The notes under the pieces are model-generated. The model saw nothing but the letters and a program-made list of their open reading frames with translations. It was not told the origin of the DNA and made no database searches. Positions 7,158 to 55,698 of a stretch of DNA of 64,000 nucleotides are shown piece after piece. Location: positions 21,142 through 85,141 of the forward strand of contig CAKQGY010000003.1 of assembly GCA_934234055.1 (NCBI GenBank), written 5' to 3'. The stretch comes from an uncultured Alphaproteobacteria bacterium. GTDB taxonomy: Bacteria > Pseudomonadota > Alphaproteobacteria > CAAHEQ01 > UBA3637. How positions within the stretch are numbered: the first letter of the stretch is position 1; each line of letters opens with the position of its first letter. The translations under genes and the position numbers were made by a program.

Positions 7158-8041
7158 AATAAAGTTTCGGGATCTATGCGGACACCATACCAGCTGAGCA
7201 CAAAATGCAGGTGTGGACCGGTGGAACGGCCGGTCGTGCCAATTCGGCCGATTGGGTCTCCTTGTTTAACCTGTTGATCTAACTTAACATTTATGTGACT
7301 GAGGTGCGAATAGGATGAAAAAACACCGGCACCGTGATCCAGCAAAATCGTCTGGCCAGTGTAAAATAAATCAGGATGCACAAAGGCAACGCGGCCGGCC
7401 GCCGGTGCCAGCACAAGAGTGCCCGTGGGGGCGGCATAGTCAGTTCCGCTATGTCCTTGTTTTTTAACATTATTCAGAATGCGGCGCGACCCGAAATGAC
7501 TGGAAATACGCTTGAAATCCGGGACGGGACGTTGAAATTTTGTCGGAAAAGCAGGGTAGTCAGAACGGGCGCGGGCGGCACGAATCTGTGCGGATTCGGT
7601 GGCGACTCGTTTCCGGTTTTCGGACGACAGGGACACGGTGGCCGACGGCAGGCCGGAGACATACTCTTCGTCCCAGGCGCGCGATTGAACCGGAAAATCC
7701 CGGGTTTTGGCACCGGTTGAGGTCTTAATCGTCAAGGATAATTTTGGAGCGTCCTGAGGGATGCCGATGACAAAACGACGGTCCTTTGTCGAGGGGATTT
7801 GAAATAAATTTTTACTTGTTTTTCCGTTGTTTAAATAAGAACTTTCAACAAAGACTTCTTCCCCGGGATCCAAGCGACCATAGGCCAGAGAACCCTCGGT
7901 CAACGGGGAGTCAAATGTTAAAGCAATACTTGAAGTGGAAAAAAACAAGAAAGATGTAATTACAATGTAATTATTTAGTGATTTTGTAATTATTTTGTAA
8001 TTACATTTTAATGAAGTATATACATTGTAATTACTTTTCAT
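7154..8041 (-). CDS. M23 family (LytM-type) peptidase
   Basis: HSGTDYAAP...GPHLHF M23 motifs. The N-terminal 30 codons are made of an AT-rich repeat array, so the true start is uncertain. Confidence 0.75.
   Translation of the reverse strand: MKSNYNVYTSLKCNYKIITKSLNNYIVITSFLFFSTSSIALTFDSPLTEGSLAYGRLDPGEEVFVESSYLNNGKTSKNLFQIPSTKDRRFVIGIPQDAPKLSLTIKTSTGAKTRDFPVQSRAWDEEYVSGLPSATVSLSSENRKRVATESAQIRAARARSDYPAFPTKFQRPVPDFKRISSHFGSRRILNNVKKQGHSGTDYAAPTGTLVLAPAAGRVAFVHPDLFYTGQTILLDHGAGVFSSYSHLSHINVKLDQQVKQGDPIGRIGTTGRSTGPHLHFVLSWYGVRIDPETLF
7943..8022. repeat. Array of five copies of the palindromic motif TGTAATTA(CA) in a pure-AT island
   Basis: Copies at 7943, 7954, 7973, 7984 and 8014. TGTAATTACA is self-complementary. 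Lies at the xseA stop / M23 start junction. Confidence 0.6.
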
Positions 8042-9650
8042 TGAATAAATCTCCTTGAAAATAGGGGGCCGGAGTGGGGTTGGGGTGAGAAACGGGGGCT
8101 GATTGGGGGAATTCCCGGGGTTGCGCGGGGTCGGAAATGGTGGCGGGATCGGGTTTTACGGGGGTGTCAGGGGTCCGGTCGGTGGCTGCCGGGGTGGATT
8201 CCCTAGGTTGTGCGGGGGTGAAGATGACGCCCGGGGTGGATTTTCGGGCTGGTATGGGGGCTGGAATGGCATTGGATATGGGCTTTTTGAGGGGGTCAGG
8301 GGCCTGTGCGGGTGTGTCGGCGTTGGTGGCTTTTCCGGTGGGGACAGAGGTTTGGGGGCTAGCCGTTGGGGCGGGGGAGGATACCTGAAAAGTTGGGGAC
8401 TGAGTGAAGGATAAATCAGGGGATTCGTGTTGTGTGTGGGGAGTGGTGGGAATCGCCTCTATTTGGCCGTCGGCAAAAGATAAAATCAGGCTTTTTTGGG
8501 CGGCCGCAACGGTAGATTGGCTGATGACTTGATGTGAGGGCGATGAAATCAGGGCAAATCCACGCTCTAAAATGGAATGATATGATAATGATTTCAATAA
8601 CTTAGCGCTTGTTTCAAAACGCACGTTGATTGAACGCCAATAAACGGAAAAGGCTTGATCCAGGCGTTCGGAACGGTCGTCCAGACGTTGTAAAAAGTTG
8701 TTGATGACTTCACCCAGATTCGGCAGGTTGAGCGAATCCAGTTTAAGTTTCTTGTCCGAGAGGGTGCGATAAAGGCTTTCGGTCAGGCGGAGAGTTTGAG
8801 TCTGTAAATGTGTGAGCAGGTCGCTGCGAACCGGAACGGCTTTTTCGGCGGCACCCGTCGGTGTGGGAGTCCGCAAGTCCGAGACATAATCTATCAGGGT
8901 GGTGTCGGTTTCGTGTCCGACAGCGGAAATAATCGGAATATCAGAGTGATAGACGGCGCGGACGACGGTTTCTTCGTTAAAACACCAAAGGTCCTCTAAA
9001 CTGCCACCGCCACGGGCAACAATCAGGACATCTGGACGCGGAATCAAGCCGTCGGGAGTGGATAAACCCGCAGGAGGAATGGCGTTAAAACCTTGAATAG
9101 CTTGAACAACCTGATCAGCGGCGCCGTCGCCTTGAACCAAAACGGGCCAGAGAAATACCGGGCGCGGAAAGCGGTCGCGCAACCGGTGCATAATATCGCG
9201 AATGACGGCGCCGGTGGGACTGGTAATCACGCCGATGGTCGCCGGTAAAAAGGGAATTTTTTTCTTGTGCGCGGGGTCAAAGAGCCCCTCTTTGGCCAGC
9301 TTTTCACGACGCTCGTTTAAGAGCTTTAAAAGGGCACCGATGCCGGCGGGCTCGGCCGATTCTATAATCATTTGGTAGTTGGAACGGCCGGGGTAGGTGG
9401 AGAGTTTGCCGGTGCAGACGACTTCCAGGCCCTCTTGCAGGACGGATGCCGCAGAACGGCCGCGCCAACAGATCGCCGAGAGAACGGAATCTTTGTCTTT
9501 GAGAGAAAAATAAGTGTGCCCCGATGCCACGGTTTTCAGGCCCGAGACTTCCCCACGTACGCGGACATGCGCAAAGACTTGCTCGACGCAGGATTTGAGA
9601 GAAAGCGATAACTCGGAGACCGATAAAATGGGTTGTTCTTGTGTTTCCAT
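8031..9650 (-). CDS. xseA: Exodeoxyribonuclease VII large subunit with a Pro-rich C-terminal tail of about 180 aa
   Basis: OB-fold plus catalytic region resembles XseA. Likely start METQEQPILSVSEL at 9650. The last ~180 aa are a low-complexity P/T/A/S-rich extension. Confidence 0.85.
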   Translation of the reverse strand: METQEQPILSVSELSLSLKSCVEQVFAHVRVRGEVSGLKTVASGHTYFSLKDKDSVLSAICWRGRSAASVLQEGLEVVCTGKLSTYPGRSNYQMIIESAEPAGIGALLKLLNERREKLAKEGLFDPAHKKKIPFLPATIGVITSPTGAVIRDIMHRLRDRFPRPVFLWPVLVQGDGAADQVVQAIQGFNAIPPAGLSTPDGLIPRPDVLIVARGGGSLEDLWCFNEETVVRAVYHSDIPIISAVGHETDTTLIDYVSDLRTPTPTGAAEKAVPVRSDLLTHLQTQTLRLTESLYRTLSDKKLKLDSLNLPNLGEVINNFLQRLDDRSERLDQAFSVYWRSINVRFETSAKLLKSLSYHSILERGFALISSPSHQVISQSTVAAAQKSLILSFADGQIEAIPTTPHTQHESPDLSFTQSPTFQVSSPAPTASPQTSVPTGKATNADTPAQAPDPLKKPISNAIPAPIPARKSTPGVIFTPAQPRESTPAATDRTPDTPVKPDPATISDPAQPREFPQSAPVSHPNPTPAPYFQGDLFNEK

Positions 9651-9879
9651 GGGGGTATTATAGCAGAAATACGGGGAAAAGAAAAGGGAAAAATGGAGCC
9701 TTGATGAGAGAGTGGCATATTGATTTGTGTGTTCAATGGATTCTTCGGGGGCAGGGAAGACCGCCCCCATCAGAATGGCAAGTTGATTTAGGTGTTTCAT
9801 GGATTGCCGCGAGGCCGAAGGGCCGGCCACTCGCAATGGCGGGGGCGGGAGCAATAGTAGGAAAGAAAAATAAAAAAAG

Positions 9880-12645: not shown

Positions 12646-14817
12646 ATGTCAAAACAAATGCTTATTGATGCGACGCACGCCGAAGAAACGCGCGTGGTCG
12701 TGCTGGACGAGGGGAGATTAGACGAGTTTGATGTTGATACCTCTACCAAAAAACAAATCAAAGGAAATATCTATTTAGCCAAAGTGGTGCGCGTGGAACC
12801 GTCGCTGCAAGCCGCGTTCGTGGAATACGGCGGCAATCGGCACGGATTCTTGGCCTTTGGGGAAATTCACCCGGACTATTACCAAATCCCGGTGGCCGAT
12901 CGCGAAGCCATTAAAGAACAAATGAAAGCCGAAGCCGCAGCCGAAAAAGCGGCGCGTGATTCGGAAGAAGAAACCGAAACCGAAGATCAGGAAGTGGAAA
13001 CTGTCAGTGATGCCGAAGCCGATGATATGATTCGGCACCGCTCGTCATTCTATCGGAAATACAAAATCCAGGAGGTTATTCGCCAGGGGCAGGTGATGCT
13101 GGTCCAAGTGGTCAAAGAAGAACGCGGCAATAAAGGCGCGGCACTGACGACCTATTTATCCTTGGCCGGCAGATACAGCGTTTTAATGCCGAACAACGGA
13201 AAAGGCGGCGGTGTTTCGCGTAAAATCAATAATGTGAAAGAACGCAAAAGCCTGCGTGAAATTGTGGAAAAACTGCCGATCCCGGAGGGTATGAGCGTGA
13301 TTATCCGCACCGCCGGACAGGGTAAAACCAAAGCCGAAATTAAACGGGACTTTGATTACCTGATTAAAACCTGGATGCAGATTCGTAAGGAAACACTGGC
13401 CTCTATTGCGCCGAAACTGATCCACGAAGAAGGCGATATTATTAAACGCTCGCTGCGGGATGTCTTTACGCCCGATATTGACGAAATTATCGTGGAAGGT
13501 GAAGATGTCTTTAAGACGACAAAGGCATTTATGAAAATCCTGATGCCGGCGCAGGTCAAGAAAATTAAACAATACAAAGGGGAACTGCCCTTGTTCCAAC
13601 AATATATGGTGGAAGCACAGCTGGAAGCTATTCACAGTAATATCGTGCAATTGCGTTCGGGCGGGTATCTGGTGATTGATCAGACAGAAGCCTTGGTTGC
13701 GGTGGATGTGAACTCGGGCCGGGCAACGCGCGAACATAATATTGAAGAAACCGCGCTGCGGACGAACCTGGAAACCTGTGATGAATTGGCGCGGCAGTTG
13801 CGACTGCGGGATATGGCGGGCCTGATTGTGATCGACTTTATTGATATGGACGAACAACGCAATAACGCCGCGGTGGAACGACGCTTGAAAGAGGCTTTGA
13901 AACGCGATCGGGCGCGGATCCAGGTTGGGAAAATCTCGGGCTTTGGGCTGATGGAAATGTCGCGGCAACGGTTGCATTCCAGCTTTTTGGAAAGCAGTTA
14001 TCATATTTGTCCGCATTGCGGCGGAAAGGGCTTGGTGCGCTCAACGGAATCGTGTGCGATGCATGCGCTGCACATCTTGGAAGAAGTGGCCGCCAAAAAT
14101 AAAGGCGCTACCTTGGTGATGAGCTTGCCCTTGGAAGTTGCGGGATATGTGCTGAATATGAAACGCGAAACGCTGGGCGACTTGGAAAAACGATTCGGAA
14201 TTAAAGTTCAAATCTTGGCTGACACAACATTGGTGAAAGCGTCGGACTTTAAGATGGAACGAATCCGCGAAAACGGCGACCGCTGTGCGGTGTCGGTGCA
14301 ACCGAACATGCCGCGCAGATCCGATCGGAACAACTCGAAAATGCAATCTATTGACGCAATTGTGCAGGCCTCTATCGCCGAAGAAGAAGCGGAAGAAGAA
14401 GCCGGCGGGCGACGCGGGCGGCGGCGTAAACATCGGCGGCGCGATTGGAACCGTAAACAAAAACAGCTGGCAGAGGGACAGGCAGAGATGAATGATGCCC
14501 GAGAGGCTGAGACGGGGGTGGCCGACGTCCGAGAGACGGCTGAAAAAAGTGAAGAAAATTTTACGGTGGTGGAGCAAACATCGCTGCAAAATGAAGACAA
14601 ACCCGCCGGGAAAAAAGGAAAATATCGCGATCGCGGGCGGCGGCGTCGGGGACAAAAATCGACGGATAAGGCTTTGGTCCCGGCGCAGGTGTCGGCTCCG
14701 GCAGTGCGGGAAGAAAATGTGCCCGTCAAGGCCGAAATGCACCCGGTTCCGGTGGCGACAGATGAAGCCCCTAAATCAGCCAAAAAAGGCGGTTGGTGGA
14801 ATCGCTTGATGGGGTAA
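12646..14817 (+). CDS. rne: Ribonuclease E
   Basis: S1 domain, DNase I-like catalytic domain, Zn-link CPHCGG, then an Arg/Glu-rich C-terminal scaffold. Confidence 0.9.
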   Translation: MSKQMLIDATHAEETRVVVLDEGRLDEFDVDTSTKKQIKGNIYLAKVVRVEPSLQAAFVEYGGNRHGFLAFGEIHPDYYQIPVADREAIKEQMKAEAAAEKAARDSEEETETEDQEVETVSDAEADDMIRHRSSFYRKYKIQEVIRQGQVMLVQVVKEERGNKGAALTTYLSLAGRYSVLMPNNGKGGGVSRKINNVKERKSLREIVEKLPIPEGMSVIIRTAGQGKTKAEIKRDFDYLIKTWMQIRKETLASIAPKLIHEEGDIIKRSLRDVFTPDIDEIIVEGEDVFKTTKAFMKILMPAQVKKIKQYKGELPLFQQYMVEAQLEAIHSNIVQLRSGGYLVIDQTEALVAVDVNSGRATREHNIEETALRTNLETCDELARQLRLRDMAGLIVIDFIDMDEQRNNAAVERRLKEALKRDRARIQVGKISGFGLMEMSRQRLHSSFLESSYHICPHCGGKGLVRSTESCAMHALHILEEVAAKNKGATLVMSLPLEVAGYVLNMKRETLGDLEKRFGIKVQILADTTLVKASDFKMERIRENGDRCAVSVQPNMPRRSDRNNSKMQSIDAIVQASIAEEEAEEEAGGRRGRRRKHRRRDWNRKQKQLAEGQAEMNDAREAETGVADVRETAEKSEENFTVVEQTSLQNEDKPAGKKGKYRDRGRRRRGQKSTDKALVPAQVSAPAVREENVPVKAEMHPVPVATDEAPKSAKKGGWWNRLMG

Positions 14818-14869: not shown

Positions 14870-14898
14870 TTGACAGGGGGATTCTTTTGGGCTAAAAT
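14870..14898 (+). promoter_or_regulatory. Near-consensus sigma70 promoter (TTGACA-N17-TAAAAT) driving the pilin-like gene leader
   Basis: Exact -35, 17-bp spacer, TAAAAT -10. Would give a ~190-nt 5' UTR that contains the conserved block and the CA tract. Confidence 0.5.
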
Positions 14899-14962: not shown

Positions 14963-15012
<50 letters not shown>

Positions 15013-15096
15013 GTTCTGGTGAGAAGAAAAATTTAAGCAGTCGGTTGCCGGGTGGCGACCGGCTGTATCTGTCTATAACCGAAAAGGAGAAATAAG

Positions 15097-17010
15097 ATGA
15101 ATACAAAGAAATCATATTTAGTGGATTGCCACGCCCCACAAGGGGGGCCCGCAATGACGGCGGGGAGCGAATCTGGTCGCACTTTGACCGAGATGCTGGG
15201 TGTGTTGGCGATTATGGGTGTGTTGACCATTGGCGGGATAGCCGGGTTTAACTGGGCGATGGACCGGTGGCGAGCGAATCGGATTATTGACGGGGTGGAA
15301 GAGCGAGCCTTGGTCGGGAGCCGGTTGCGCCTGTCCGGTATGAATAGGACAATGGAAATAGCAGATGCAGTGGTGGCTCAAACCGGGGGAACGATAGAGG
15401 ACTATGCCACGACGGTGAGTAATACGGGCTATAACGATGAGAAGACTTATTTTTCGGTGCAGGTAGCCGGAGTATCGCCGCAGGTGTGTGAGAATGTGAT
15501 GAACCTGAACTGGCAGTTGCCGGTGGAAGTGTATGCGGGGAATACCCAATATACGGGTGATACGGCGATTTGTGCCGGAGAGGGGACAGTGGATTTGACT
15601 TTTGTGTTTGCGGCGGATTTGATTACGAAGAAAGATGTGAAGGTGGTGGATCGGAACAATCCGACCTGTCAGCCGACACAGGTTTGGACCTGTAAGACGA
15701 ATGACGCCAACGGCTATAAATGCTGCACGGCGGGTATGTTGTGCAAGGCGGAGGAGGATACACTGCCGACAGGAGTGTTTTCAGAGAACAAGGGGAACTG
15801 TCCGCGCGGGACGCATCAGTGCCGGAATAATCAGTGCGTATGTCGCAAAAGTTGCCCGGCCGGCTATGAACAAGATCCAAAAACATGCGCATGCAGTTCT
15901 CAAACATGTGAAACCGGTGTTTGGAACGAAGCCAAAGGCGAATGCGTAGAATGTAATGAAGATACGGACTGTGCCACTCGCACCGACGGCAAGACAACCT
16001 GCGATACAGCGAGTAATGTGTGCAAGTGTCCGGCAGGTAAGGTTCCGAATGCCGACGGGACGGCTTGTGTGGAATGTAAAACAAACGCGGATTGTAAAAA
16101 TGCCTACAAGCCCGTCTGTAATACGGCGAATAACACTTGTGTGGGATGTACCGAAGATGCGGATTGCGCGGGAAATAGAATATGCAACACGGCAAATAAT
16201 ACTTGTAAATGCCCGGCTATGGGCACGAAGCCAACGGCCACTTGCTATACGGCCACGGAGCATGCGGCGACAGAGCAATGCCTGGCCTACACGACATATG
16301 AGCCTCTGATTTGCCCAGAACCTAAAACGGAATGCGATGTTGCCAACAACACTTGCAAGTGCCCGGATTGTCCGGCCGAGAAAATGACGCAAAATGAGGA
16401 TACCTGTGAGTGTATTTGTAATAATAACAAAGTGCTGAATGCAACTGGAACAAGATGTGTGGGGTGTAATACAGATGCTGATTGTGCCTGGCGCACAGAT
16501 GGAAGGACGAGGTGTGGTGTAAATTCCCACACTTGTGCATATGTAACATGTAGAAGCAATTCAGATTGTGCAGCGGGTCAATATTGTTCTATAGGGCCAA
16601 ATGATTGCAAAGATGGCACTTCTGGGGCGTGTAAAGAATTGGGAGAACGGATAGAGTTTGAAAATTATAATTTGCTATATTCTTCTGGTAATAGTGATAT
16701 GAACTGGATGTCGGCTGGGAACTGGTGTCAGGCCAATGGTAAAAAACTCGTTAGTGTAGATACATTGGTCAAAATTGCAGGGAGACCAACTTCTGAGTGG
16801 CACATAGCCGAGTATCAAGATGAACTTCACAGTGCATTTTACAAAGTCTTTGGAAATACAGATTTAGGCTTTTGGACTGACCAAGACTGTATGGGTTGCC
16901 TTGGCAGTCCTACCTGCCGTGCTGCGCTCTTAGGTTCTATTAATGCTACTGATGTTAGTTGGGTGACCTTTAATGATTGGCGTAATAAAATTAGAGCATT
17001 ATGTGAGTAG
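15097..17010 (+). CDS. Modular type IV pilin-like protein: class III signal + pilin head + Cys-rich repeats + C-type-lectin-like C-terminal module
   Basis: AAGGAG SD 8 nt upstream. N-terminus ...SESG|RTLTEMLGVLAIMGVLTIGGIAGFNWAM closely follows the G|FTLIELMIVVAIIGILAAIA pilin motif (Glu at +5). About 60 Cys in CxxC..DxDC..C.C repeats. C-terminus NWMSAGNWCQANGKKLVS...FWTDQDC resembles a CTLD. Confidence 0.6.
   Translation: MNTKKSYLVDCHAPQGGPAMTAGSESGRTLTEMLGVLAIMGVLTIGGIAGFNWAMDRWRANRIIDGVEERALVGSRLRLSGMNRTMEIADAVVAQTGGTIEDYATTVSNTGYNDEKTYFSVQVAGVSPQVCENVMNLNWQLPVEVYAGNTQYTGDTAICAGEGTVDLTFVFAADLITKKDVKVVDRNNPTCQPTQVWTCKTNDANGYKCCTAGMLCKAEEDTLPTGVFSENKGNCPRGTHQCRNNQCVCRKSCPAGYEQDPKTCACSSQTCETGVWNEAKGECVECNEDTDCATRTDGKTTCDTASNVCKCPAGKVPNADGTACVECKTNADCKNAYKPVCNTANNTCVGCTEDADCAGNRICNTANNTCKCPAMGTKPTATCYTATEHAATEQCLAYTTYEPLICPEPKTECDVANNTCKCPDCPAEKMTQNEDTCECICNNNKVLNATGTRCVGCNTDADCAWRTDGRTRCGVNSHTCAYVTCRSNSDCAAGQYCSIGPNDCKDGTSGACKELGERIEFENYNLLYSSGNSDMNWMSAGNWCQANGKKLVSVDTLVKIAGRPTSEWHIAEYQDELHSAFYKVFGNTDLGFWTDQDCMGCLGSPTCRAALLGSINATDVSWVTFNDWRNKIRALCE
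15124..15159 (+). repeat. Stem-loop element GATTGCCACG-(CCCCACAAGGGGGG)-CCCGCAATGACG inside the leader-peptide coding region
   Basis: One of at least four copies with conserved flanks and compensatory stem changes. Contains an in-frame ATG. Confidence 0.7.
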
Positions 17011-17031
17011 CAAAAGGATTATTTGTTTCTA

Positions 17032-17069
17032 GATTGCCACGCGCCCCGTGTGGGGCGCTCGCAATGACG
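17032..17069 (+). repeat. Copy of the GATTGCCACG...CGCAATGAC stem-loop plus a truncated pilin-gene 5' fragment
   Basis: GATTGCCACGCGCCCCGTGTGGGGCGCTCGCAATGACG with a 7-bp GCGCCCC/GGGGCGC stem. Upstream context TATTTGTTTCTAGATTGCC mirrors gene 1's TATTTAGTGGATTGCC. The reading frame stops after MTMRN. Confidence 0.7.
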
Positions 17070-17226
17070 ATGAGGAATTAGGTGATTCTGGATTCTTCGG
17101 GGGACAAGGGCCCAATTCCACCTAAGCCTTGAACGGCGTGCGCGGGGCGGACTTGTTCAAGGCAAAGGTTCATTGCTTTGCGCACTCGGACCGGCCACCG
17201 GCAGGTCCTCGCTTACGCAGTCCTTC

Positions 17227-17237
17227 GCAATGACGGG
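17227..17237 (+). repeat. Partial copy (3' half only, CGCAATGACGG) of the stem-loop element
   Basis: Exact match to the 3' flank. The 5' half is not recognisable. Confidence 0.35.
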
Positions 17238-17315
17238 GAGGAGGGATGGTTAGAGGTAGGTCCGAGGGTGCGCAGTGTAATGACAGGAGAGTGCGACGGT
17301 GGAGCGGAGGGAAGG

Positions 17316-53943: not shown

Positions 53944-53986
53944 ACCCTCTTTCGGTTTTGTCTCCCAAAAATTACCCACCCCCGTT

Positions 53987-54023
53987 GTTATTGCGAGCGC
54001 CCCATCCGGGACGCGTGGCAATC
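53987..54023 (-). repeat. Copy of the GATTGCCACG...CGCAATxAC stem-loop element (minus orientation)
   Basis: Reverse complement reads GATTGCCACGCGTCCCGGATGGGGCGCTCGCAATAAC. Confidence 0.6.
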
Positions 54024-54054
54024 CACGAATCACATAATGCCTTATATTTTCCGC

Positions 54055-54173: not shown

Positions 54174-54316
54174 TCTAATTGCTGATGAGCAGAAAATTTC
54201 AGTCAGTCGGTCGGTCGCCTGCGGGCAGGGACGACCGGTTGCTGGCGTATACGAACGGTGGACGACCGAAAGGTGGTCTGCCGTTTGAAATTATTCAAAA
54301 CGAAAAGGAGACAACT

Positions 54317-55687
54317 ATGAAAACAAAACACATCAATTCAATATGTCATTCTGAGCGGGCCTTGTGCACTGAAGAATCCATAATCAAGGATTCATTATTA
54401 AATGGATTGCCACGTCCCACAAGTGGGCTCGCAATGACGCCCGGGAACGAATCCGGCCGGTCTCTGGTGGAAATGCTGGGGGTCTTGGCCGTCATGGGTA
54501 TCCTGACGATCGGCGGAATAGCCGGGTTTAATTACGCCATGGATAGATCCAAAGCCAACGATATTTTGGACGGCGTGAACAAGCGCGCAATCGCCTTGTC
54601 GTCTTACCTGATGCTGGGAACGAACATTTCGGCCACGACCCTGGACGCCGAGTTTTCCAACCATATCGGTGATGCGACGGTGGCTTTAAGCCCTGCCGGC
54701 TCGGGGTTCAAAATGACGGTCTCGGGCCTGACGGACTCCGTGTGCGACCAAGTCCTGACCAACGGCCTGAAAATGGCGTCCGAGATTACATTGGGCGAGA
54801 CCAAAATCTGGGACCGGGGCGTCAAGTCCGATCACACCTGCGCCGACAGCGATAACACGATTTCTTTTTCATTTAACGCTGCACTAAACGGCGCTCAGTC
54901 CGCCACCAATGATACCCCCGCGGGGCCCAACGCAGGCACCTGCACCGGGAACGGCGGAACATGGAACGCGGATACAGGTTCGTGCACTTGCCCGGGTCGC
55001 TACACGGGCGTAAATTGTGAAGTCGCCCCGACCGCCTGCCCCGAGGGCGCCACCCCCACCGCCGACGGAAAGTGTCAGATGTGTAAACCAGGAAATGAGG
55101 ATTGTGCTACCTGTGAAGTGACGGAAGAATTTGCTTGTTTTAGTGAGTGTAAGTGTGTAAAACCAGGTAGCGAGTGTACTGATGTATGTTCTCTTGGTTG
55201 GGCAGACACCGTCGCCTGTGTAAATGGAAAATGTGTCTGCGATAATGCAAATGCTGTTTGGGTGACAGAATTTGGGGATGAAGGGCTGACTTTTGGGGAA
55301 TGTGTGATTCCCACCGAAGAACACCAATGCTTTACAAATAAGGATTGCGGGCAGAGTGAATACTGTGATGTTACAATGGAAAGACGCTCTTGCCAAGCAT
55401 TACCGGCTATGACCGAACAAGGCGGGGTTTTGGTCAGCCAAGAGCCCGTGAATTACTATGCGGCTCAAAATATATGCGAGGGTTATGGTAAAAGGCTTCC
55501 GAGTACTTCTACATATGACTTCGGCAAAGCACTTGAAAAATCAAATGGCGAGCCCTTTTGGGTGAAAGGTGGACGAATGGGGGTTTGCCCAGATGCAGAT
55601 GCAAATAATTGTAAGGATGTAGACGAAGAAATGGAAATCTATAATGGCCTTGGAGATGGCAAACATCATACATTGATTTGTATTTAA
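54317..55687 (+). CDS. Modular type IV pilin-like protein paralog: long leader + pilin head + EGF-like/Cys-rich region + lectin-like C-terminal module
   Basis: AAGGAG SD. ...NESG|RSLVEMLGVLAVMGILTIGGIAGFNYAM is near-identical to gene 1. EGF-like CTCPGRYTGVNCE. C-terminus NYYAAQNICEGYGKRLPS...FWVKGG is the shared lectin-like signature. Confidence 0.6.
   Translation: MKTKHINSICHSERALCTEESIIKDSLLNGLPRPTSGLAMTPGNESGRSLVEMLGVLAVMGILTIGGIAGFNYAMDRSKANDILDGVNKRAIALSSYLMLGTNISATTLDAEFSNHIGDATVALSPAGSGFKMTVSGLTDSVCDQVLTNGLKMASEITLGETKIWDRGVKSDHTCADSDNTISFSFNAALNGAQSATNDTPAGPNAGTCTGNGGTWNADTGSCTCPGRYTGVNCEVAPTACPEGATPTADGKCQMCKPGNEDCATCEVTEEFACFSECKCVKPGSECTDVCSLGWADTVACVNGKCVCDNANAVWVTEFGDEGLTFGECVIPTEEHQCFTNKDCGQSEYCDVTMERRSCQALPAMTEQGGVLVSQEPVNYYAAQNICEGYGKRLPSTSTYDFGKALEKSNGEPFWVKGGRMGVCPDADANNCKDVDEEMEIYNGLGDGKHHTLICI
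54405..54439 (+). repeat. Stem-loop element GATTGCCACG-(TCCCACAAGTGGGCT)-CGCAATGACG inside the leader coding region
   Basis: Same flanks as 15124-15159, read in a different codon frame. Inner stem CCCAC/GTGGG. Confidence 0.7.
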
Positions 55688-55689
55688 TT

Positions 55690-55698
55690 CCCCCCCCC
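55690..55698 (+). repeat. C9 homopolymer tract 2 nt after the stop codon of the pilin-like gene
   Basis: TAA-TT-CCCCCCCCC, read directly. Confidence 0.9.

Follow-up and report, generated by a model that had tools for sequence, protein, structure and literature searches.

A short hairpin that recurs in a 64,000-nucleotide stretch of DNA from an uncultured alphaproteobacterium (contig CAKQGY010000003.1; hereafter the window) is very probably a dispersed small palindromic DNA repeat of the repetitive extragenic palindrome (REP) kind, belonging to the CGTC-tagged superfamily and sitting in the tolerant leaders of pilin-like genes. Two such genes, the open reading frames (ORFs) called ORF1 (15097-17010, plus strand) and ORF2 (54317-55687, plus strand), carry the repeat in their leader-coding parts. 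The element would act at the DNA level, as a dispersed and probably mobile or recombining sequence, and not as the regulator of a single gene. A preliminary description, made from the sequence alone, had recognized the stem-loop and suggested for it a role in gating translation initiation or as a recombination or targeting site. We agree with it that conservation lies at the level of nucleotides and hairpin rather than peptide, and that the repeat is read in different codon frames in the two genes, with the peptides VDCHAPQGGPAMT and GLPRPTSGLAMT.

The repeat is made up of a tag (CGTC or TGTC, unpaired), a basal stem of 5 bp that starts with A-T, an internal loop, an apical hairpin and a CCA tail. 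On the other strand, it reads CGTC-ATTGCGAG...CGTGGCAAT-CCA. The internal loop is asymmetric and conserved, with GAG opposite CGTG, and the apical hairpin can have any sequence, with a stem of 2-10 bp and an interior of 5-24 nt. The basal stem is ATTGC/GCAAT or, in a sister type (GGATTCTTC...CTCAGAATGAC, with CTCAGAATGRC on the 3' side), ATTCT/AGAAT, the two sides of this outer stem covarying between types; all window copies start with one of these two stems. The tag is CGTC in the copies at 15122, 54403 and 17031, TGTC at 54344, and degenerate at 53986 (TGTT), 9800 (CGCC) and 9737 (TGCC). In our scan of other genomes, the tag was fixed by the query. The position that yields the CCA tail was free in that query, and a T precedes GGATT in 105 of 146 copies (72%) from other genomes; within the window, TGGATT (= AATCCA) is present in six of the seven full copies. 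The bases CT precede CGCAAT in 141 of the 146.

The inner stem is a real helix of free sequence. Its positions 1-6 pair in 66-89% of 110 distinct foreign copies, with four to six pair types at each position, versus 21-43% when the register is shifted by one. In an ungapped alignment of 27 sequences, the share of paired cells is 89.6%, as opposed to 26-44% for slid controls, and both partners vary in four of the five inner pairs. Thus, the compensated inner-stem changes first seen among the window copies generalize to the 110 foreign ones. Predicted RNA folding, proposed earlier as a check, gave a split outcome. The intergenic copies at 17031 and 53986 fold better than shuffled sequences (z -2.63 and -2.68, or about -2.65), whereas the two genic copies fold no better than shuffles (z -1.7 and +0.4).

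Within the window, the pattern GATTGCCRCG-N8-30-CGCAAT occurs five times, compared with a mean of 0.02 in shuffled sequences, and none of 100 shuffles reaches five. A single flank with one mismatch shows no excess over shuffled sequence, for either flank in the whole window. A covariance model (CM) built from 27 foreign copies, and no window sequence, recovers exactly five ATTGC-type copies in the window (E 1.5e-9 to 1.3e-4), and covariation holds when more copies are aligned. The preliminary description had named four of the five, at 15124-15159, 54405-54439, 17032-17069 and 53987-54023, and their sequences read as it claimed, apart from the start of the 17032 copy, which is TAGATT and not TGGATT. 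In ORF1, the repeat TGGATTGCCACG-CCCCacaaGGGG-GGCCCGCAATGACG occupies 15122-15159 on the plus strand (CM match 15120-15161, 39.8 bits, E 1.8e-9), and in ORF2 it lies at 54403-54439, also on the plus strand (CM match 54401-54441, 39.5 bits, E 2.3e-9). The plus-strand copy at 17031-17069 starts 21 nt past the ORF1 stop codon (17008-17010; CM match 17028-17071, 40.1 bits, E 1.5e-9). A minus-strand copy at 53986-54025 lies upstream of the promoter-like site of ORF2 (CM match 53984-54027, 26.2 bits, E 1.9e-5); it has a T.G in the inner stem and CGCAATAAC as its 3' flank. Accordingly, the 3' flank is not strictly invariant as had been stated.

The fifth copy had been overlooked, as had the sister type. 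It is a variant, GATTGCCGCG...CGCAATGGC, on the plus strand at 9800-9841, between xseA and dus (CM match 9798-9843, 23.3 bits, E 1.3e-4), and it stands in tandem, and in the same orientation, with an ATTCT-type repeat at 9737-9779 (plus strand; fold z -2.04). A second ATTCT-type repeat, on the minus strand at 54344-54380, reads TGTC-ATTCTGAG...GAAGAAT-CCA on the plus strand; it also lies in the ORF2 leader, where it forms a tail-to-tail doublet with the 54403-54439 copy across a 22-nt spacer. An ATTCT-type 5' half, TGGATTCTTCGGGGGACAAGGGCCC, is found at 17089-17113 (plus strand), with homology to a related locus (L122) resuming at 17112. The half copy reported at 17227-17237 is present as a lone 3' flank, TTCGCAATGACGG, at 17224-17236 (plus strand), and is shared with L122. 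The copies at 9800, 17031 and 53986 are intergenic, in agreement with the earlier statement that the element also occurs outside genes. The neighboring genes are of ordinary chromosomal kinds, namely rne, xseA, dus, tkt, rpsA, a deaminase and a pseudouridine synthase. The next-best CM match, a minus-strand hit at 13041-13072 (16.5 bits, E 0.013; GGATTTTGTATTTCCGATAGAATGACG) that is antisense within rne, is a decayed copy or chance, and nothing else is convincing.

Rfam holds no match to the element at the gathering threshold in the whole window, or at E values up to 10 in the region 16980-17300. The window's only Rfam match is a tRNA, and permissive thresholds return just chance-level matches. 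The element is therefore no described RNA family in Rfam. Searches of the literature with flank and core sequences as strings returned primers and unrelated text only.

Beyond the window, we scanned one genome per bacterial and archaeal species with the query GGATTGCCACG-N10-24-CGCAATGACG and found at least 120 loci with exact flanks, where about four chance matches are estimated for a pattern of this information. The matches come from Alpha-, Beta- and Gammaproteobacteria, Oscillospiraceae and other Clostridia, Treponema, Helicobacter canis, Saccharibacteria and other Patescibacteria, Chloroflexi, Elusimicrobia, Fibrobacter, Bacteroidota, Myxococcota, Desulfobacterota, Vampirovibrionales and Actinomycetes. 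In metagenomes, the same flanks around an apex of 0-7 nt again gave at least 120 loci, among which the dominant minimal form is the 28-nt GGATTGCCACG-CTTCG/CTGCG/CTACG-CTCGCAATGACG. The idea that the hairpin inserts into a conserved site was dropped, because no empty site (flanks 0-2 nt apart) appears among the metagenome matches listed, in which the shortest common apex is 5 nt and one copy has 3 nt. Further types (ATTCC, ATTCT, ATTAC and ATTGT) occur in the scanned loci, and in these, too, the two stem sides covary.

The copies favor neither a strand nor a kind of gene. Across the 120 genome loci they are mostly intergenic, and the intergenic ones comprise 31 between convergent, 54 between co-directional and 10 between divergent genes. 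The element is in sense orientation in 24 of the co-directional gaps and antisense in 30; for ORF overlaps the numbers are 26 and 29, and most of these overlaps concern ORF ends or short, doubtful ORFs. Orientation by GC skew is likewise balanced (49 versus 46 overall, and 21 versus 20 where the absolute skew exceeds 0.05), and so lacks the replication-strand bias that single-strand HUH transposition would lead one to expect. Clustering of ORFs from 240 loci revealed no recurrent transposase among the neighbors; the largest clusters are generic (SDR, ABC-type), and an apparent UvrA cluster shrank to two loci on checking. The preliminary description had named in advance an outcome that would contradict it, namely a generic REP or MITE (a miniature transposable element with inverted repeats) with no association to pilin-like genes, and scatter across phyla without gene specificity is what we found. 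An association with the pilin-like family does exist in this lineage, but it is local.

Might the similarity reflect nothing more than the shared ancestry of two paralogues? ORF1 and ORF2 are indeed paralogous, and the repeat is equally spaced from ESGR in both. However, copies occur outside genes (9800, 17031 and 53986) and at hundreds of unrelated loci, and the repeat flanks of ORF1 and ORF2 are identical at 19 of 19 positions (100%), compared with 71% for the adjoining paralogous coding DNA. This explanation, which is refuted by the shuffle counts, the cross-phylum scan and the foreign-copy CM, has practically no chance of being correct.

Some loci in the scan contain regularly spaced arrays of repeats (L034 6-305, L036 2881-3299, L087 5513-5992, L095 6655-7505, L016 5141-6315 and L057 3810-6498), with periods of about 67, 101-141, 150, 270, 550 and 1330 bp. 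In a 67-bp array in Limnohabitans, the flanking bases are identical in each unit. Most copies are solitary though, and CRISPR repeats were set aside as an identity on this ground. Integron attC sites were set aside as well, given the lack of RYYYAAC/GTTRRRY boxes, and so were ribozyme cores and K-turns.

The closest known elements are the CGTC-tagged REPs (Di Nocera, De Gregorio and Rocco 2013, BMC Genomics 14:522, PMC3733652). These have an unpaired CGTC, TGTC or CCTC tag, almost always A and T at stem positions 1-2, and a 3-nt tail near CCA. They lie mainly between convergent and unidirectional genes, some are in frame within genes, many of these near N-termini, and no transposase has been linked to them. 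Genomes can hold several types, head-to-head dimers predominate, and hosts, among them Micavibrio, were reported from five phyla. The superfamily also takes in Neisseria dRS3 and the Rickettsia palindromic elements (RPE) RPE-6 and RPE-4, filed as CGTC-1 and CGTC-4. The element in the window resembles these REPs in its tag, its A-T stem start and its CCA tail. It is similarly mostly intergenic, in convergent or co-directional and rarely divergent gaps, occurs in frame near N-termini, coexists with other types and adjoins no tyrosine transposase. It differs in occurring in far more than five phyla and in the arrangement of its pairs in the window, which are head-to-tail (9737/9800) and tail-to-tail (54344/54403), although this sample is small. 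Judged by the text description of families CGTC-1 to CGTC-4 in PMC3733652, the element appears to be a variant of the superfamily that is none of its four families as described.

With dRS3, RPE-4 and RPE-6 (CGTC-ATTCCCGC-gcag-GCGGGAAT-CCA), the element shares the tag, an AT-start stem and the tail, and the Rickettsia units, too, are tolerated in frame within genes that encode proteins. The basal stem of these repeats is ATTCC, as opposed to ATTGC or ATTCT in the window, and their stems are uniform within a genome, whereas each copy of our element has its own apex. The ATTCC form in the scanned loci is identical to dRS3, and a copy of this form, GTCATTCCCGCGCAGGCAGGAATCC, occurs in the leader of a pilin-like homologue (P0012, in the DNA of L127). 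A looser resemblance is to REPs or REPINs mobilized by REP-associated tyrosine transposases (RAYTs): both involve a short hairpin with an unpaired tag, inverted doublets and a small bracketed nuclease gene. However, the tag there is GTAG rather than CGTC, and the bracketed gene in our loci encodes a GIY-YIG protein (PF01541), not an HUH Y1 enzyme. We rejected a REPIN-RAYT system, because, although a doublet is present (54344-54439), no RAYT was found either in the window or among loci totaling 1.7 Mb; a jackhmmer search that started from E. coli RayT gave no hit among the six-frame ORFs of these roughly 250 repeat-centered loci.

ORF1 encodes a 637-residue pilin-like protein with a Cys-rich C-terminal part. 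Its leader, MNTKKSYL-(repeat)-AGSESG, is followed by RTLTEMLGVLAIMGVL. ORF2 encodes a 456-residue paralogue with two repeats in its leader; the two proteins are 43% identical over their first ~150 residues and share the motif ESG↓R(T/S)L(T/V)EMLGVLA(I/V)MG(V/I)LTIGGIAGF. As in type IV pilins and the class III signal, there is a G at -1, an E at +5 and a hydrophobic helix (G↓RTLTEMLGVLAIMGVL). Unlike in type IV pilins, where position +1 is F, M or L, it is arginine here, and the leaders are 25-85 residues long owing to repeat insertions. The N_methyl family PF07963 gives a weak match below threshold (15.9-16.5 bits against a cut-off of 21.2, E 0.006-0.009, with 0.009 for ORF1). The full ORF1 and ORF2 proteins match no Pfam family, the N-terminal domain of ORF1 found no match by sequence in the PDB, and no record was found of the exact ORF1 product or of the homologue P0006. 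A search of 5.8 billion proteins identified 34 relatives, whose only name is 'hypothetical protein [Alphaproteobacteria bacterium]'. All 34 share the motif, and their leaders differ widely.

About 13 of the 34 homologues have repeat-encoded leader peptides, of several types and in both orientations. These are DCH...LAMT in P0001 and P0005, CHCERPFWTRGNP (reverse orientation) in P0010, CHC...CGNP in P0011, GFP..GMT and SFPRRQES in P0012, SFPRRRES in P0014, HSE...EES plus GLPR...LAMT in P0018, SLRGAKRRANR in P0026, ILKQVQNDK in P0027 and NCH...CNND in P0029 and P0032. In the DNA of L126, L127, L128 and L129, we confirmed leader repeats of the ATTGC, ATTCT and ATTCC types in either orientation. 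Other leaders are free of repeats (MKLRGYSLESGR, MTGKQRVNEKKKTRENESGR and MKSKHINSIIKESIYSESGR).

Comparison of filled and empty leaders is direct in the case of ORF2. Relative to the repeat-free homologue P0019 (L121), its repeat at 54344 is a clean 39-nt (13-codon) insert after ...AATTCAATA. The ORF2 leader reads MKTKHINSI-(13 residues)-IKDSLLN-(repeat)-ESGR, as against MKSKHINSI-IKESIYSESGR without repeats, and the N-terminal MK(S/T)KHI(N/I)SI is kept in members with and without the insert. P0010 (L126) has an ATTGC-type repeat at the same point and in the same orientation as the first ORF2 repeat. In this lineage, copies, the tail-to-tail doublet among them, have probably entered the 5' ends of these pilin-like surface-protein genes or propagated from one to another. 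They would persist there because the segment from the start codon to the prepilin-like cleavage motif ESG↓R tolerates almost any in-frame insert.

Related strains reveal a rapid turnover of the repeat interior. Locus L125 is 99.85% identical to window positions 5097-27010, and L122 is syntenic and 97-98% identical. The window and L122 agree at every position in the 130 nt upstream of the ORF1 repeat and in the repeat's flanks, and the apex is wholly different (CCCCACAAGGGGGGCC versus AGGCCGGAGCCCAGCCCCT). Similarly, both apices in ORF2 are replaced in L128, where the 23-nt spacer matches at 22 of 23 positions; at the site of the 54403 copy, P0018 of L128 has a different interior. The 9737 and 9800 copies have two base differences each between the window and L122, and the region of the 17031 copy is absent from L122 or replaced there. 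In L126, an identical repeat occurs in two paralogues 5 kb apart, which shows that units are copied or carried as a whole, together with their apex. A metagenome scan for the ORF2 spacer ATCAAGGATTCATTATTAAATGG found no alleles of the leader repeats.

Larger rearrangements also touch the repeats. A 934-bp segment of L122 (3789-4723) is absent from the window (9831-9845), and the junction falls in the sequence TCGCAATGRCGG, which is the 3' flank of the repeat at 9800. The segment contains a 208-residue ORF without a Pfam family, two more repeats and a degenerate GTGTAATGAC motif, of a type also found at window positions 17270-17285. Homology between ORF1 and its paralogue in L124 begins at 15168, right past the repeat. 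The C-terminal half of ORF1 has been swapped between strains (window 15955-17112 versus L122 10859-11302), which gives proteins of 637 and 419 residues with 285 conserved N-terminal residues. The swapped part is Cys-rich and matches the Myxo_Cys_RPT repeat, and suggests a cassette-like diversification of a surface protein. As a whole, the strain comparisons fit a mobile or recombining DNA element.

These observations lend some support to the earlier suggestion of a recombination or targeting site, insofar as the 934-bp indel junction and the L124 homology edge lie in or beside a repeat. A selected function is another matter. If repeats were kept as sites for shuffling leaders, bodies and C-terminal cassettes, or as landing pads for mobile DNA, this could also account for the same-orientation repeats that bracket ORF1 (15122 and 17031) and for its swapped C-terminal half. 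Neisseria dRS3 repeats, members of the same superfamily, are phage integration sites. However, the left breakpoint of that swap, at 15955, is within the gene and not at a repeat, and paralogues in the repeat-poor loci L121, L123 and L124 vary without repeats. Exchange at any dispersed repeat is moreover expected as a by-product and is no proof of a selected function. We therefore regard maintenance for recombination as unlikely.

The other suggested role was an RNA structure in the pilin-like mRNA that gates translation, for example by choosing between starts that give a long or a short leader. The internal in-frame ATG on which it was built is present, at 15154-15156 in ORF1 and 54434-54436 in ORF2. 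In these genes and in P0005, P0018 and P0020/21, it stands at the hairpin's 3' foot, with a constant spacing of eight codons to G↓R, and gene callers picked it as the start of P0020/21. The better-than-shuffled folding of the intergenic copies also speaks for this reading. Nonetheless, the same flanks occur in many phyla, mostly between genes and alike in both orientations, and many homologues lack the repeat. P0010, P0012 and P0014, whose repeats are reversed, have no such ATG, and the two genic copies are those that fold no better than shuffles. No conserved Shine-Dalgarno sequence precedes the internal ATG; what looks like one in ORF1, AAGGGGGG, belongs to the hypervariable apex and is missing from L122, which is 97% identical. 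By contrast, a strong ribosome-binding site, AAAGGAGA, with an ATG is conserved outside the hairpin, at least 27 nt upstream of it in ORF1 and ORF2 and also upstream of the repeat in L121, L126 and L129. An RNA switch is thus very improbable. More generally, we rejected a cis-regulatory RNA of one gene family, in view of the two orientations, the unrelated neighbors, the many phyla, the family members without the element and the lack of an Rfam match.

Given the strong upstream ribosome-binding site and start, we favor a DNA repeat that is probably translated as part of a long leader and then removed when the leader is cleaved. For annotation, this means that such hairpins are not to be read as riboregulators. 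It also implies that odd N-terminal extensions (DCH...LAMT, CHCE...RGNP, HSE...EES, SFPR..ES) in hypothetical proteins of many phyla are repeat-encoded. Cleaved leaders may serve as cost-free sinks for selfish repeats within genes, comparable to the in-frame palindromic elements of Rickettsia.

Several points weigh against a dispersed repeat of the CGTC superfamily. The flanks keep about 23 bases exactly the same in different phyla, which exceeds what one would predict for a merely selfish, drifting repeat. Within the pilin-like genes, flank identity amid coding DNA that is 71% identical needs selection, gene conversion or re-insertion. Of roughly nine window copies, about six are within ~400 nt of ORF1 or ORF2, a clustering for which passive tolerance by itself is not a full explanation. 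The window encodes neither a transposase nor a nuclease as a partner. If the internal ATG starts translation, the repeats could lie in a 5' untranslated region. Finally, the 5-bp stem with a fixed internal loop and a variable apex of 2-10 bp differs from the four CGTC families, which have an uninterrupted stem of 8-9 bp and a 4-5 nt loop (PMC3733652).

What is unusual about the element is this flank identity across phyla, together with its rapid apex turnover, the presence of several repeat types in cleavable leaders and its bracketing of GIY-YIG nuclease genes. The constancy of the flanks, taken with the replacement of apices between strains 97% identical, points to a conserved factor that recognizes the repeat. 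A candidate is a small family of GIY-YIG nucleases of about 100 residues (PF01541, E 2e-14 to 6e-16) that recurs near repeats. In loci collected for their repeats, five of the six GIY-YIG genes lie 8-144 nt from a repeat (L059, L099, L155, L193 and L228), and they are often bracketed by repeats or doublets of the window type, as in Micavibrio sp. (L059).

A tblastn search of PLSDB with the L059 protein returned 32 records, largely from taxa listed as CGTC-positive in PMC3733652. We then collected 24-kb loci by the protein, from 12 taxa (L250-L267), and looked for hairpins in them with a scan that made no use of the tag. The gene is flanked by the local CGTC, TGTC or CCTC repeat type in every one of the 12 taxa, which belong to Alpha-, Beta- and Gammaproteobacteria, Cyanobacteria and Bacteroidota. 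For the first six taxa, 33 of 57 repeats are within 600 nt of the gene, which is 6% of the sequence. In Azospirillum lipoferum, all three repeats in 24 kb are beside the gene; the numbers are eight of nine in Sinorhizobium meliloti, two of four in Aeromonas caviae, eight of 19 in Planktothrix agardhii and 12 of 22 in Neisseria gonorrhoeae, where the gene is within a dRS3 array. Novosphingobium, Neorhizobium, Rhizobium CIAT894 and Sphingobium each have one repeat on each side of the gene, in inverted orientation, Spirosoma has TGTC palindromes on both sides, and Photobacterium and R. tumorigenes have repeats only downstream. A typical unit measures about 400 bp and is composed of a repeat, ~50 nt, the ORF, ~30 nt and an inverted repeat. 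These genes interrupt operons, between sufB and sufC in A. lipoferum and between MmeI and drmA (a DISARM system) in P. agardhii.

It is possible, though short of probable, that CGTC-type repeats, including the ATTGC type of the window, are the gene-less partners of this ~400-bp autonomous unit of a 95-110-residue GIY-YIG gene and two inverted repeats. The relationship may then resemble that of REPINs to RAYTs, or of MITEs to insertion sequences, with a different nuclease fold. If so, GIY-YIG proteins would supply the dedicated enzyme missing in Di Nocera et al. 2013 (PMC3733652), and the model would explain why the flanks, as the recognition site, are constant across phyla, why the apex varies freely and why a doublet sits in the ORF2 leader. 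Alternatively, the GIY-YIG gene could be a separate element that uses repeats as safe landing sites; adjacency is no proof of catalysis. We found no GIY-YIG gene in the window or in L121-L129. A complication is that the Neisseria ATTCCCGC repeat has been assigned to a Group 2 RAYT (Bertels and Rainey, bioRxiv 10.1101/2021.07.10.451892), and the partner enzyme may differ between lineages. In the literature that we searched, no paper names GIY-YIG together with REP, dRS3, RPE or the Neisseria intergenic mosaic element (NIME). The bracketing makes the origin and movement of CGTC repeats, Neisseria dRS3 arrays and Rickettsia RPE-4 and RPE-6 testable.

Apart from the repeat, the pilin-like gene family looks phase-variable. 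An (AC)n tract, in the context cccttatagtact(AC)n at[gc]ta, lies upstream of pilin-like genes, at 14980-15007 in the window and also at L122 9892-9911, L125 9884-9911, L126 257-286, L121 9883-9916 and L129 2430-2461. The window has 14 units, the 97%-identical strain has 10, paralogues have 15-17 and the tract upstream of ORF2 (~54160) has only four, and this length variation suggests slipped-strand variation of phase or level. A promoter-like TTGACA-17-TAAAAT is located at 14870-14898. In L124 (9886-10040), a short ORF with a strong ribosome-binding site precedes P0003, runs through a 13-C tract and then stops; a gain of one C or a loss of two would put it in frame with the pilin-like gene, and P0007, P0026 and P0029 were called as read-through proteins with PPP(P). 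The tract looks like a homopolymer on/off switch. A C9 homopolymer (55690-55698) also stands right after the ORF2 stop, before the convergent rpsA.

A GC-rich hairpin between the (AC)n tract and the ribosome-binding site could be a conserved 5' untranslated feature. It is gtcggttgccgggtggcgaccggc at 15040-15068 and gtcggtcgcctgcgggcagggacgaccgg upstream of ORF2 (~54195-54235), and it also occurs in L121, L122 and L126.

Other repetitive sequences are found around xseA. At the junction of xseA with an M23-peptidase gene, 7936-8036 is an AT-rich run of TGTAATTA-like units that also forms a 37-nt inverted repeat. The 3' part of xseA contains three CCGGGGTGGATTCCC-like direct repeats of ~30 nt (8102-8260), and the length of this region differs between the window (8068-8207) and L122 (2107-2150).

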